Source of the DNA: Escherichia coli
GTDB taxonomy: Bacteria; Pseudomonadota; Gammaproteobacteria; Enterobacterales; Enterobacteriaceae
Reading direction: 5' to 3' (one strand)
Length of the DNA: 64,000 nt
Assembly (NCBI RefSeq): GCF_030013205.1
Contig: NZ_CP122648.1
Shown: positions 13,152 through 22,100 of the stretch, one piece after another
Position numbering within the stretch: position 1 is the first letter of the stretch
How the letters are laid out: each line of letters starts with the position of its first letter
Program-made: the position numbers

Positions 13152-16100
13152 TAAAACGTGAGGAAATACCTGGATTTTTCCTGGTTATTTTGCCGCAGGT
13201 CAGCGTATCGTGAACATCTTTTCCAGTGTTCAGTATGGTGCCTTGCACGGTAATTATGTCACTGGTTATTAACCAATTTTTCCTGGGGGATAAATGAGCG
13301 CGGGAAGCCCAAAATTCACCGTTCGCCGCATTGCGGCTTTGTCACTGGTTTCGCTATGGCTGGCAGGCTGTTCTGACACTTCAAATCCACCGGCCCCGGT
13401 CAGCTCCGTTAATGGCAATGCGCCTGCAAATACCAATTCTGGTATGTTGATTACGCCGCCGCCGAAAATGGGGACGACGTCTACAGCTCAGCAACCGCAA
13501 ATTCAGCCGGTACAGCAGCCACAAATTCAGGCAACTCAACAACCGCAAATCCAGCCGGTGCAGCCAGTAGCTCAGCAGCCGGTACAGATGGAAAACGGAC
13601 GCATCGTCTACAACCGTCAGTATGGGAACATTCCGAAAGGCAGTTATAGCGGCAGTACCTATACCGTGAAAAAAGGCGACACACTTTTCTATATCGCCTG
13701 GATTACTGGCAACGATTTCCGTGACCTTGCTCAGCGCAACAATATTCAGGCACCATACGCGCTGAACGTCGGTCAGACCTTACAGGTGGGTAATGCTTCC
13801 GGTACGCCAATCACTGGCGGAAATGCCATTACCCAGGCCGATGCAGCAGAGCAAGGAGTTGTGATCAAGCCTGCACAAAATTCCACCGTTGCTGTTGCGT
13901 CGCAACCGACAATTACGTATTCTGAGTCTTCGGGTGAACAGAGTGCTAACAAAATGTTGCCGAACAACAAGCCAACTGCGACCACGGTCACAGCGCCTGT
14001 AACGGTGCCAACAGCAAGCACAACCGAGCCGACTGTCAGCAGTACATCAACCAGTACGCCTATCTCCACCTGGCGCTGGCCGACTGAGGGCAAAGTGATC
14101 GAAACCTTTGGCGCTTCTGAGGGGGGCAACAAGGGGATTGATATCGCAGGCAGCAAAGGACAGGCAATTATCGCGACCGCAGATGGCCGCGTTGTTTATG
14201 CCGGTAACGCGCTGCGCGGCTACGGTAATCTGATTATCATCAAACATAATGATGATTACCTGAGTGCCTACGCCCATAACGACACAATGCTGGTCCGGGA
14301 ACAACAAGAAGTGAAGGCGGGGCAAAAAATAGCAACCATGGGTAGCACCGGAACCAGTTCAACACGCTTGCATTTTGAAATTCGTTACAAGGGGAAATCC
14401 GTAAACCCGCTGCGTTATTTGCCGCAGCGATAAATCGGCGGAACCAGGCTTTTGCTTGAATGTTCCGTCAAGGGATCACGGGTAGGAGCCACCTTATGAG
14501 TCAGAATACGCTGAAAGTTCATGATTTAAATGAAGATGCGGAATTTGATGAGAACGGAGTTGAGGTTTTTGACGAAAAGGCCTTAGTAGAAGAGGAACCC
14601 AGTGATAACGATTTGGCCGAAGAGGAACTGTTATCGCAGGGAGCCACACAGCGTGTGTTGGACGCGACTCAGCTTTACCTTGGTGAGATTGGTTATTCAC
14701 CACTGTTAACGGCCGAAGAAGAAGTTTATTTTGCGCGTCGCGCACTGCGTGGAGATGTTGCCTCCCGCCGCCGGATGATCGAGAGTAACTTGCGTCTGGT
14801 GGTAAAAATTGCCCGCCGTTATGGCAATCGTGGTCTGGCGTTGCTGGACCTGATCGAAGAGGGCAACCTGGGGCTGATCCGCGCGGTAGAGAAGTTTGAC
14901 CCGGAACGTGGTTTCCGCTTCTCAACATACGCAACCTGGTGGATTCGCCAGACGATCGAACGGGCGATTATGAACCAAACCCGTACTATTCGTTTGCCGA
15001 TTCACATCGTAAAGGAGCTGAACGTTTACCTGCGAACCGCACGCGAGTTGTCCCATAAACTGGACCACGAACCAAGTGCGGAAGAGATCGCAGAGCAACT
15101 GGATAAGCCAGTTGATGACGTCAGCCGTATGCTTCGTCTTAACGAGCGCATTACCTCGGTAGACACCCCGCTGGGTGGTGATTCCGAAAAAGCGTTGCTG
15201 GACATCCTGGTCGATGAAAAAGAGAACGGTCCGGAAGATACCACGCAAGATGACGATATGAAGCAGAGCATCGTCAAATGGCTGTTCGAGCTGAACGCCA
15301 AACAGCGTGAAGTACTGGCACGTCGATTCGGTTTGCTGGGGTACGAAGCGGCAACACTGGAAGATGTAGGTCGTGAAATTGGCCTCACCCGTGAACGTGT
15401 TCGCCAGATTCAGGTTGAAGGCCTGCGCCGTTTGCGCGAAATCCTGCAAACGCAGGGGCTGAATATCGAAGCGCTGTTCCGCGAGTAAGTAAGCATCTGT
15501 CAGAAAGGCCAGTCTCAAGCGAGGCTGGCCTTTTTCTTTTGGTTGGGGAGCCGGTGTGTTTGTGGGCTGGATAAGCCGCAATAGCGTCTCATCCGGCAAT
15601 TTGCACCCTATGTGTTCATCATCTTGCGCACTAGCTGCATAAACAGCTCCTGCTCTTCTCCACTCAAACGCCCCAAAAATTCCTCATCCACGCTGTCACC
15701 TATCGGTATCGCCGCAGCAAGTATCTTTTCGCCTTCGGCAGTCAGCCAGACAAAGCGTCGCCGCTTGTCAGCGGCGTCATGTTCACGTCTGACTAAGCCA
15801 CGATTTTCCATTCTTGCCAACATTTCTGCCAGCGTTGCTTTGGTGCTGACGGCTGCTTCCATCAGTGCCACCTGTTCGATACCAGGTTTATCAGCAATGG
15901 CGCGCATCACCGCGTACTGTGGTTTGGTCAGATCAGGTAACTCGTGCTGCCAGCGGGCCGTGTGTTGCTGAAAAAGCTGTCGTAACTGATGGAACGCTTT
16001 ATTTCGTAACGCCATGTAAACTCCGGGCTAATTCTCTGTCGCTATCATAGCGGTTTTTCAGTGACGAAGAAGATGTTGTTACTTTTCAATCCTTGCCGCT

Positions 16101-19100: not shown

Positions 19101-22100
19101 GCGCAGACAATCACATCACTGCCCGGTTGTATGCGCGAGGTTACCGACTGCGGCCTGAGTTTTTTAAGTGGCGGAAAATCGTGTTGAGGCCAACGCCAAT
19201 AATGCGTGCACTGGCGCGACATCCGACGCCATTCATGGCCATATCAATGATTTTCTGGTGCGTACCGGGCTGAGAGGCGGCGTAAGTGAACTGTAGTTGC
19301 CATGTTTTACGGCAGTGAGAGCAGAGATAGCGCTGATGTCCGGCGGTGCTTTTGCCGTTACGCACCACCCCGTCAGTAGCTGAACAGGAGGGACAGCTGA
19401 TAGAAACAGAAGCCACTGGAGCACCTCAAAAACACCATCATACACTAAATCAGTAAGTTGGCAGCATCACCGTCGGCTTCAGGGCAAAAAGAGAGTTGAT
19501 GTAAGCGGGATTGTAATAATTGATAGTCACCATGAATATCACCAACGGCCCATATATGGCGATAGTGATGGGCATTGATTTTTTGATAGCGTGTAGATGG
19601 CATGGTTTTACCCTGTAAAATAAGCTTTCCTATTATACAGGGTATTTTTATTTGATTCGTCAGTTGTCGTTAATATTCCCGATAGCAAAAGACTATCGGG
19701 AATTGTTATTACACCAGACTCTTCAAGCGATAAATCCATTCCAGCGCCTGACGCGGGGTGAGTGAATCCGGGTCCAGGTTTTCCAGTGCCTCGACCGCAG
19801 GCGACGTTTCTTCTGGCACTGACAGCAAAGACATTTGCGTACCATCCACTTGCGTAGCGGCGGCGTTCGGCGAAATGCTTTCCAGCTCACGCAGTTTTTG
19901 CCGTGCGCGCTTAATAACCTCTTTTGGCACGCCCGCCAGAGCAGCAACCGCCAGGCCGTAGCTTTTGCTCGCCGCGCCATCCTGCACGCTGTGCATAAAG
20001 GCAATGGTGTCGCCGTGCTCCAGTGCATCAAGATGCACGTTGGCGACGCCTTCCATTTTCTCCGGTAACTGGGTTAGCTCGAAATAGTGGGTGGCAAACA
20101 ACGTCAACGCTTTAATCTTATTCGCCAGATTTTCCGCGCACGCCCACGCCAGCGACAGACCATCGTAAGTGGAGGTTCCGCGCCCAATCTCATCCATCAG
20201 CACCAGACTGTACTCGGTGGCGTTATGTAAAATATTGGCGGTTTCGGTCATCTCCACCATAAAGGTTGAACGCCCGGATGCCAGATCATCCGCTGCCCCT
20301 ACGCGGGTAAAGATGCGATCGATAGGTCCAATCTCGACTTTTTGTGCCGGTACATAGCTGCCGATGTAGGCCATCAGCGCAATCAGTGCGGTCTGGCGCA
20401 TATAGGTACTTTTACCGCCCATATTCGGACCGGTAATGATCAACATGCGACGCTGCGGCGACAGGTTCAGCGGGTTGGCGATAAATGGCTCGTTCAGTAC
20501 CTGTTCAACCACCGGATGGCGGCCTTCGGTGATGCGAATACCCGGTTTATCAATGAAGGTCGGGCAGGTGTAGTTCAGGGTATAGGCCCGCTCCGCCAGG
20601 TTAACCAGCACATCAAGTTCTGCCAGTGCGCTTGCGCTCTGTTGCAACGCTTCCAGATGCGGCAACAGCAGGTCGAACAGCTCTTCATAAAGCTGTTTTT
20701 CCAGTGCCAGTGCTTTGCCTTTTGAGGTGAGAACTTTATCTTCGTACTCTTTTAGCTCTGGAATAATGTAGCGTTCGGCGTTTTTCAGCGTCTGGCGGCG
20801 CATGTAGTTAATCGGTGCCAGATGGCTTTGTCCACGGCTGATCTGAATGTAATAACCATGCACCGCGTTAAATCCGACTTTCAGCGTGTCCAGGCCGGTA
20901 CGTTCACGCTCGCGGACTTCCAGACGCTCCAGATAATCGGTCGCGCCGTCAGCCAGCGCGCGCCACTCATCCAGCTCTTCGTTATAGCCCGATGCGATAA
21001 CACCACCGTCGCGCACCAGTACCGGCGGTGTGTCGATAATGGCCCGCTCCAGCAGATCGCGCAGTTCGGCAAACTCACCCATCTTCTCACGCAGCGCCTG
21101 TACCGGTGCACTATTGACAGTTTCTAACTGCGCGCGCAGCTCCGGCAGTTGCTGGAAAGCGTGACGCATACGGGCCAGATCGCGTGGGCGAGCAGTTCGT
21201 AAAGCCAGACGCGCCAGAATACGTTCCAGGTCGCCGACCTGACGCAGTACCGGCTGCAGCTCGGCGGTGAAATCCTGCAATGCGCCAATAGTTTGCTGGC
21301 GCTCAAGCAAGACGCGGGTATCGCGCACTGGCATATGCAGCCAGCGTTTCAGCATACGGCTGCCCATCGGCGTGACGGTGCAGTCGAGCACAGAAGCCAG
21401 CGTATTTTCCGCACCACCCGCCAGGTTCTGGGTGATTTCCAGATTACGACGCGTCGCGGCATCCATAATGATGCTGTCCTGCTCACGTTCCATGGTGATG
21501 GAACGAATATGCGGCAGAGTCGTACGTTGGGTATCTTTCGCATACTGCAACAGACAACCGGCAGCACAAAGTCCGCGCGGCGCGTTCTCGACGCCAAAAC
21601 CGACCAGATCGCGGGTCCCAAATTGCAGATTCAACTGCTGGCGCGCGGTGTCGATTTCAAACTCCCACAGCGGGCGACGGCGCAGGCCGCGACGGCCTTC
21701 AATTAACGACATTTCAGCAAAATCTTCTGCATACAGCAGTTCCGCAGGATTAGTGCGTTGCAGTTCTGCCGCCATCGTTTCCCGGTCAGCCGGTTCGCTC
21801 AGGCGAAAACGACCGGAACTGATATCCAGCGTCGCGTAGCCGAAACCTTTACTGTCCTGCCAGATAGCCGCCAGCAGGTTATCCTGACGCTCCTGCAACA
21901 GCGCTTCATCGCTGATGGTGCCCGGCGTAACGATACGCACAACTTTGCGCTCAACCGGACCTTTGCTGGTCGCTGGATCGCCAATTTGTTCGCAGATGGC
22001 AACGGACTCGCCCTGATTCACCAGTTTGGCGAGGTAGTTTTCCACCGCATGGTAGGGGATCCCCGCCATTGGGATCGGCTCTCCCGCCGAAGCACCGCGT

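Follow-up and report, generated by a model that had tools for sequence, protein, structure and literature searches.

The mutS-rpoS region of an Escherichia coli genome very probably carries the HosA-HAD hydroxyarylic acid decarboxylase module, beside an IS1-disrupted pphB

Our analysis leads us to conclude, with high confidence, that the segment between rpoS and mutS in this genome is the E. coli HosA-HAD module: a 4-hydroxybenzoate-inducible, non-oxidative and reversible hydroxyarylic acid decarboxylase in the O157:H7-type arrangement. The window is a 64,000-nucleotide stretch of contig NZ_CP122648.1, and the interval under study, 15489-19708, begins one base past the rpoS stop and ends one base short of the mutS stop. 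Its features and flanks are as follows.

14496-15488, plus strand: rpoS, the left conserved flank (allele E33, A239V)
15502-15535, plus strand: intrinsic terminator hairpin of rpoS; K-12 homology stops at 15534
15535-18470: strain-variable segment of 2,936 bp, in place of K-12 ygbI-ygbN by comparison with K-12
15562-15597, minus strand: REP-like element just within the left junction
15608-16015, minus strand: hosA, MarR/SlyA-family repressor, 135 aa
16040-16052, no strand: small second palindrome, CGCTATCATAGCG, 25 bp ahead of the start of hosA
16093-16121, plus strand: putative had promoter, with a -35-like TTGCCG, a 17-nt spacer and a -10-like TATGTT (8/12 matches)
16131-16144, no strand: HosA operator GTTCGTATACGAAC, a perfect 14-bp palindrome 17 bp upstream of the hadB ATG
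16162-16755, plus strand: hadB (vdcB/ecdB/pad1), UbiX-family flavin prenyltransferase, 197 aa
16755-18182, plus strand: hadC (vdcC/ecdC/yclC), UbiD-family prFMN-dependent decarboxylase, 475 aa
18193-18429, plus strand: hadD (vdcD/ecdD), Zn-ribbon subunit, 78 aa
18435-18467, no strand: hairpin (-18.4 kcal/mol, z = -3.1) separating the stops of the convergent genes hadD and pphB
18470-18703, minus strand: 3' remnant of pphB (pseudogene)
18704-19471, minus strand: IS1 of 768 bp; it retains both terminal inverted repeats, and its insA/insB show the programmed frameshift
19472-19603, minus strand: 5' remnant of pphB, codons 1-44, starting with the retained 9-bp target copy GTCGGCTTC
19709-22270, minus strand: mutS, the right conserved flank

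The original prediction described a variable mutS-rpoS segment with a regulator and a three-gene operon, and all four genes are indeed present in that order and orientation, intact and without internal stops. Comparison with K-12 fixed the limits of the variable part: homology is lost 46 bp past rpoS (15534) and regained at the pphB stop codon (18471), so that 15535-18470 is the known "2.9-kb" insert of the O157:H7/EPEC type. The statement that K-12 carries ygbI-ygbN at this site was also correct; there they lie between pphB and rpoS. Here no ygb genes separate rpoS from pphB, a layout like that of O157:H7 H2495. Polymorphism of the mutS-rpoS region is described in work cited from 2000 onward. 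The REP-like element was called by alignment to a REP consensus. Rfam at gathering thresholds gave no matches within the interval, the sole matches in the window being four distant tRNAs, and the RefSeq annotation contains the same genes, identically annotated.

The operon had been predicted to encode UbiX-like, UbiD-like and Zn-ribbon proteins of the VdcBCD/BsdBCD type. Homology searches, which might have found the three proteins unlike UbiX, UbiD and VdcD, instead agreed with that assignment. Each scores above NCBI's curated NCBIfam cut-off: HadB on NF041206 VdcB (312 bits; cut-off 290), HadC on NF041204 VdcC (789 bits; cut-off 650) and HadD on NF041205 VdcD (121 bits; cut-off 30). HadB also scores 246 bits on TIGR00421 and is identical to O157:H7 Pad1 (PDB 1SBZ) at 196 of 197 residues, while HadC aligns over its full length with ShVdcC (PDB 7AE4, chain A; E = 3.5e-160, 537 bits). 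The HadC motifs NVGIYR, MHD, EYEMAG and EGPFGE were all found, with their N, R, H and E residues conserved relative to 7AE4; R166 within NVGIYR and both E269 and E274 within EGPFGE are among those conserved. By analogy with Fdc1, we take these three residues to be the catalytic Glu-Arg-Glu. A Glu-Arg-Glu (ERE) motif is named in published work on VdcCD. In HadD, cysteines C3, C6, C28 and C31 fall opposite the Zn ligands of ShVdcD (ShdD) in the alignment, accounting for both CxxC knuckles.

The three genes lie compactly on one strand. The hadB stop and hadC start overlap by 1 nt (TAATG), and the 10-nt gap between hadC and hadD holds hadD's own ribosome-binding site (AAGGAG). The hairpin beyond hadD is, on its predicted folding, a probable bidirectional terminator. 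The module is under purifying selection: measured against the O157:H7 allele, hadBCD have dN/dS values of 0.00-0.02 and hosA one of 0.08, with dS in the range 0.13-0.35. Long antisense open reading frames also occur within hadB and hadC, for example at 17148-17873 on the minus strand; we set these aside as likely by-products of high GC3 (0.63-0.70).

The divergent MarR-type regulator that had been predicted proved to be HosA, identical to the crystallized EPEC protein (PDB 8AGA) at 132 of 135 residues. None of the three differences falls at a reported ligand contact, and the residues reported to contact 4-hydroxybenzoate, H9, R12 and D110, are all kept in the translated protein. Generic MarR-family models match HosA, but none reaches its specific cut-off, which fits a distinct subfamily. 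According to published work, HosA represses both the HAD operon and its own gene, and 4-hydroxybenzoate frees it from DNA; this ligand-dependent release and derepression was published for the UMN026 protein, and HosA is already in use as a 4-hydroxybenzoate biosensor. Thus the view that substrate and inducer were not evident holds for the sequence alone but not once the literature is considered, where the HosA effector is 4-hydroxybenzoate (KD about 4.7 uM by ITC). A link between HosA and motility in EPEC has been published too, so the had operon may not be its sole target.

The operator GTTCGTATACGAAC, together with its flanks, is identical to the published HosA TFBS probe. Binding of HosA to this 14-bp palindrome has already been demonstrated by EMSA and BLI, so that the EMSA originally proposed for the intergenic palindrome exists in the literature, on a site identical to the window's. 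The smaller palindrome, CGCTATCATAGCG, is kept in four alleles. When 15400-19800 was scanned with a promoter consensus, the hosA-hadB spacer yielded no sigma-70 site, and the total was no better than that of shuffled sequences; the putative promoter at 16093-16121, which falls under the scan threshold, comes from our reading of the spacer and the allele alignment. Its hexamers are conserved among alleles, the -10-like element being TATTTT in the other three, and the spacer varies. Because the 30 bp between the putative hexamers are about 12% diverged from other alleles, the level of had expression could differ from theirs.

Repression, induction by 4-hydroxybenzoate, prFMN chemistry and the part played by the D subunit are taken from published studies of HosA and HadB proteins nearly identical to these, or of the homologous VdcCD. 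Combined with them, our data suggest a mechanism. Without ligand, a HosA dimer would sit on GTTCGTATACGAAC in the hadB leader, a site that published work places just downstream of the transcription start, and would block transcription of both hadBCD and hosA. Binding of 4-hydroxybenzoate at the dimer interface, to H9 and R12 of one subunit and D110 of the other, would take HosA off the DNA. HadB is predicted to prenylate reduced FMN, giving prFMN, with which HadC, as a UbiD-type hexamer, would convert 4-hydroxybenzoate to phenol and vanillate to guaiacol. HadC would require the Zn-ribbon HadD, presumably bound beside the catalytic Glu-Arg-Glu loops. VdcC is known to depend on VdcD, to take 4-hydroxybenzoate and vanillate and to be inactivated by oxygen; VdcCD enzymes accept several hydroxybenzoates; and an assay of the K. 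pneumoniae NCTC 418 decarboxylase is cited in the literature. By analogy with these homologues, HadBCD would decarboxylate 4-hydroxybenzoate and vanillate reversibly and with sensitivity to oxygen, and because of that sensitivity its probable site of action is the anaerobic gut, where phenolic acids derived from plants or parabens would be its substrates. Gene content, integrity, families, motifs, operator identity, context, distribution and purifying selection were computed here; promoter position, activity in this strain and physiological role are inferred.

Could the operon instead be a spare UbiX/UbiD pair for ubiquinone synthesis, decarboxylating 3-octaprenyl-4-hydroxybenzoate? HadB and HadC do belong to the UbiX and UbiD families. 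UbiX-type enzymes supply prFMN, the cofactor that UbiD requires, and HadB makes the same cofactor. However, HadC scores only 173.5 bits on the UbiD equivalog (cut-off 788) against 789 on VdcC, and the operon includes a VdcD subunit, which is specific to hydroxyarylic acid enzymes. Moreover, 56% of E. coli genomes, K-12 included, are without the module and have normal ubiquinone synthesis, and the operon, according to published work, stays repressed until free 4-hydroxybenzoate appears. We give this reading almost no credence. A different phenolic acid, such as protocatechuate or gallate, might be the true substrate of an AroY/LpdC-like enzyme, with 4-hydroxybenzoate merely the inducer. UbiD-family aromatic decarboxylases do overlap in substrates, and VdcCD enzymes accept several hydroxybenzoates, but the match of HadC to the protocatechuate decarboxylase 5O3M is weak, at 99 bits against 537 to ShVdcC, and LpdD-type small subunits are unrelated to VdcD. 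In addition, 4-hydroxybenzoate is both the inducer and the best in vitro substrate of the orthologues. We consider another substrate very unlikely. On the scores against the UbiD equivalog and 5O3M, we rejected a UbiD or AroY identity for HadC.

A further reading is that the genes are decaying in this strain, neighbouring IS1 activity having silenced the module or left it irrelevant. IS1 and its deletion lie 274 bp from hadD, and the promoter spacer is unusually diverged. Against this, the four reading frames are full length and intact, dN/dS of hadBCD is at most 0.02, the operator, ribosome-binding sites and putative hexamers are conserved, and the deletion stops within pphB, short of the hairpin and hadD. 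Decay is therefore exceedingly improbable, and an intact HosA-HAD module remains the reading that we prefer.

The pphB pseudogene takes up the final 1.24 kb of the interval (18470-19708); the 768-bp IS1 splits it, and an adjacent 291-bp deletion shortens it. Neither the insertion inside pphB nor the deletion figured in the original prediction. The right copy of the 9-bp target, GTCGGCTTC, alone remains, and IS1 is not flanked by a two-sided duplication; the sister strain ETEC1748, in contrast, has kept both copies. We read the left copy as lost, with 291 bp of pphB, in the IS1-adjacent deletion. Among complete genomes, ETEC4079, a porcine strain, is the only one with this junction; its sequence differs from the window at the tRNA-Arg array and beyond.

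The module is present in 2,380 of 5,426 complete E. coli genomes. The allele in the window is a minor one: its DNA is 95-96% identical to that of most E. coli copies, and only 26 genomes reach 99% or more. A tblastn search of the plasmid collection placed HadC homologues, among the 15 records listed, on mislabelled chromosomes or replicons of at least 200 kb, and the genome distribution survey found no E. coli plasmid copy of the module; given where those records lie, plasmid mobility was rejected as an explanation.

As a gene module, the HosA-HAD system found here is already characterized and contains nothing new, with crystal structures of HosA, the B subunit and a homologous CD complex. The gain is in annotation: the regulator can be named HosA, with known operator and inducer, and the operon hadBCD/ecdBCD. 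Biologically the module is ordinary: with it, gut E. coli would detoxify phenolic acids from plants or parabens and form phenol. The clone-specific IS1 scar could serve as a strain marker. It is conceivable, though we think it unlikely, that the lineage features have a phenotype, the diverged spacer altering the set-point or inducer response of the operon and the damage done to the PphB phosphatase by the clone-specific IS1 and the deletion being adaptive in porcine ETEC. If so, stress signalling, or the formation of phenol from phenolic acids in the diet, would set the strain apart from O157:H7 or EPEC.

Comparison with known systems places the locus at several distances. UbiX and UbiD of ubiquinone biosynthesis share two protein families and cofactor chemistry with HadB and HadC, but HadBCD differs in its extra D subunit, soluble substrate, inducible control and accessory-genome distribution. 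Closer are VdcBCD (Streptomyces sp. D7), BsdBCD (Bacillus subtilis), ShdBCD/VdcCD (Sedimentibacter hydroxybenzoicus, 7AE4) and KpdBCD (Klebsiella pneumoniae), which share the B-C-D order, a prFMN-dependent UbiD-type C, the Glu-Arg-Glu and a Zn-ribbon D with two CxxC knuckles. At the protein level, HadC shares 97.5% identity with its Klebsiella counterparts and about 73% with those of Streptomyces; HadD is weakly similar to ShdD (46 bits) and has a 6-residue insertion. Ewers 2014 called the HosA-HAD module 'slyA/kpdR-kpdBCD', kpdR being a synonym for the regulator. K-12 (pphB-ygbI-ygbJKLMN-rpoS) has the same flanks, homology breaking just past the terminator of rpoS and again at the stop codon of pphB, but carries a 6.1-kb threonate/tetronate utilization cluster at the site, without hosA-had genes; EPEC E2348/69 has both sets, whereas the window has only hosA-had. 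The modules of O157:H7, EPEC E2348/69 and UMN026 (hosA-pad1-yclC-yclD, ecdBCD, hadBCD) have the same genes, order, orientation and rpoS-adjacent position, an identical operator and proteins 0-4 residues apart, and in O157:H7 the module directly adjoins pphB with no ygb genes, as here. The window differs from these three in its minor allele, with the diverged 30-bp promoter spacer, and in a neighbouring pphB destroyed by IS1 and the 291-bp deletion.

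The interval between the stop codons of rpoS and mutS (15489-19708) carries a divergent MarR/SlyA-family repressor gene, hosA, and the decarboxylase subunit genes hadB, hadC and hadD (also named vdcBCD/ecdBCD, or pad1-yclC-yclD), all four with intact reading frames.

Genes of the hosA-had module, from the ORF listing
15608-16015, - strand, hosA, repressor, 135 aa
16162-16755, + strand, hadB, subunit B, 197 aa
16755-18182, + strand, hadC, subunit C, 475 aa
18193-18429, + strand, hadD, subunit D, 78 aa

A 146-bp spacer separates hosA from hadB; the hadB stop and hadC start overlap in TAATG, and a 10 nt gap lies between hadC and hadD, the latter having an AAGGAG ribosome-binding site. 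Between hadD and the convergent pphB is a stable hairpin (18435-18467; -18.4 kcal/mol, z = -3.1). Homology to K-12 MG1655 stops at 15534, 46 bp beyond rpoS and directly past the rpoS terminator hairpin, and restarts at 18471, the pphB stop codon; the strain-variable segment is therefore 2,936 bp. At the corresponding position K-12 has ygbI-ygbN, in agreement with the original prediction. Immediately within its left junction, the variable segment contains a REP-like element (15562-15597, - strand; GCCGGATGAGACGC...CTTATCCAGCC), flanked by the rpoS terminator and the hosA stop.

The proposal of a UbiX/UbiD/VdcD-type operon with a divergent MarR-type regulator was borne out by NCBIfam scores and PDB matches. 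HadB, HadC and HadD exceed the curated cut-offs of the hydroxyarylic acid decarboxylase models VdcB (312 bits; cut-off 290), VdcC (789; 650) and VdcD (121; 30), respectively. HadB shares 196/197 residues with "Pad1" of E. coli O157:H7, for which a crystal structure exists (PDB 1SBZ), and HadC aligns over its full length (E = 3.5e-160) with Sedimentibacter VdcC as crystallised in the VdcCD complex (7AE4), retaining the NVGIYR, MHD, EYEMAG and EGPFGE motifs. HadD can be aligned to the Sedimentibacter homologue ShdD, and its cysteines 3, 6, 28 and 31 correspond to the residues reported to bind Zn in VdcD (Marshall et al. 2021). Two other identities for HadC were rejected: it scored 173.5 bits on the UbiD equivalog model, for which the cut-off is 788, and its match to structures of protocatechuate decarboxylase reached about 99 bits. 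The regulator is HosA, identical at 132/135 residues to PDB 8AGA and with the reported 4-hydroxybenzoate (4-HBA) contacts H9, R12 and D110 intact; the window allele has M52, I98 and G119. RefSeq annotation already gives a MarR-family regulator and decarboxylase subunits B, C and D for these genes.

The original prediction held that substrate and inducer were not evident; they are indeed unreadable from the sequence, but the inducer and likely substrates are known because of published work on HosA and VdcCD. According to papers citing Roy and Ranjan (Biochemistry 2016), HosA represses both itself and the non-oxidative hydroxyarylic acid decarboxylase operon, its site is downstream of the transcription start, and 4-HBA disrupts HosA-DNA binding and induces the operon. 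For the enzyme, VdcC without VdcD is inactive; six Zn-ribbon subunits join the VdcC hexamer near the catalytic Glu-Arg-Glu loops, and the complex, whose cofactor is inactivated by oxygen, decarboxylates both 4-HBA and vanillate (Marshall et al. 2021).

The hosA-hadB spacer contains a perfect 14-bp palindrome, GTTCGTATACGAAC (16131-16144), 17 bp 5' of the hadB ATG. The same palindrome with the same flanks is present in the oligonucleotide of a published HosA-binding study, in which this 14-bp site is the HosA operator, 4-HBA releases HosA in EMSA, and the KD for 4-HBA is 4.74 uM. The spacer is also the most diverged part of the hosA-had allele, at 88-89% identity to other alleles, and the changes are concentrated in 16088-16119, a 30-bp stretch about 12% diverged between alleles, which may affect had expression. 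Kept across alleles are the operator, the ribosome-binding site, a -35-like TTGCCG and a -10-like hexamer (TATGTT in the window, TATTTT in other alleles). We infer from these hexamers a putative had promoter, at which a generic promoter scan made no call. A second small palindrome, CGCTATCATAGCG (16040-16052), is located about 25 bp 5' of the hosA start; four diverged alleles share it without change, and its sequence bears no relation to that of the HosA operator.

The 2.9-kb module is present in 2,380 of 5,426 complete E. coli genomes, in one copy each and always on the chromosome. It adjoins pphB directly, as in the window and O157:H7, in about 590 of these, a count that is approximate in that it depends on an 80% coverage rule; the remainder presumably resemble EPEC E2348/69, which keeps ygbI-N beside the module. 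In the literature these mutS-rpoS arrangements are named patterns I and IV, and a "2.9 kb" insert with hosA, pad1 and yclC is described. Only 26 genomes, mostly of porcine ETEC, carry the module at 99% identity or higher to the window allele, and most other copies are 95-96% identical to it. Against O157:H7, dS is 0.13-0.35 for the had genes and 0.04 for adjacent rpoS, and dN/dS is 0.00-0.02 for hadBCD and 0.08 for hosA; HadD is identical in protein despite 14 silent differences. Judged from these comparisons, hosA and hadBCD are long-standing alleles subject to strong purifying selection rather than genes in decay, and their conservation suggests that the window allele is expressed and active.

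Outside the operon, the rightmost 1.24 kb of the interval is a split pphB, which the original prediction missed. A 768-bp IS1 (18704-19471) interrupts this Ser/Thr phosphatase 2 gene after codon 44, leaving a pseudogene (18470-19603). Three stages can be seen among relatives, which include sister strains of porcine ETEC: CFSAN018748 has an uninterrupted pphB; in ETEC1748 and five further strains IS1 is simply inserted, with a 9-bp duplication, GTCGGCTTC; and in the window 291 bp of pphB and one copy of the duplication have since been deleted. Seven porcine strains carry the insertion junction at 100% identity; the deletion junction, among the 5,426 complete genomes, occurs in porcine ETEC4079 only.

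RpoS (14496-15488) is full length, with E33 where K-12 has Q33, and with A239V, a change missing from the common allele WP_000081550.1 and present in the ETEC1748/ETEC4079 clone (WP_063086191.1). mutS (19709-22270) is 96.4% identical to K-12 and O157:H7 and 93.2% to EPEC, far more diverged than nlpD and rpoS (about 99%). This divergence, with a dS of 0.16 but a dN/dS of 0.003, is consistent with its known mosaic, recombining nature. On the far side of mutS, a TOBE-domain/molybdopterin-binding protein gene (22940-23368, - strand) between ygbA and fhlA is another small presence/absence polymorphism, found in NRZ14408 and ETEC4079 and absent from K-12 and O157:H7 H2495.

The window is identical to ETEC4079 as far as 62357 and differs past that point, indicating a close relative as its source. 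After a tRNA-Ser gene it has three tandem tRNA-Arg(ACG) genes (62024-62516), versus two in ETEC4079, and starting at the array (62358-64000) the two are 98.5% identical instead of about 100%, suggesting a tRNA-Arg copy-number change and a recombination boundary. Annotation of the identical ETEC4079 sequence places type I-E cas genes (casB to cas2e) and a CRISPR array (3953-4347) in 1-4347, and it locates a HigB/HigA-like toxin-antitoxin pair at 37423-38150, flanked by hycI and ascB.

Overall, the observation of a decarboxylase operon and its regulator between rpoS and mutS is confirmed and its interpretation is supported; for the hosA-had system to which they belong, the sequence, structure, regulation and population genetics are already known.
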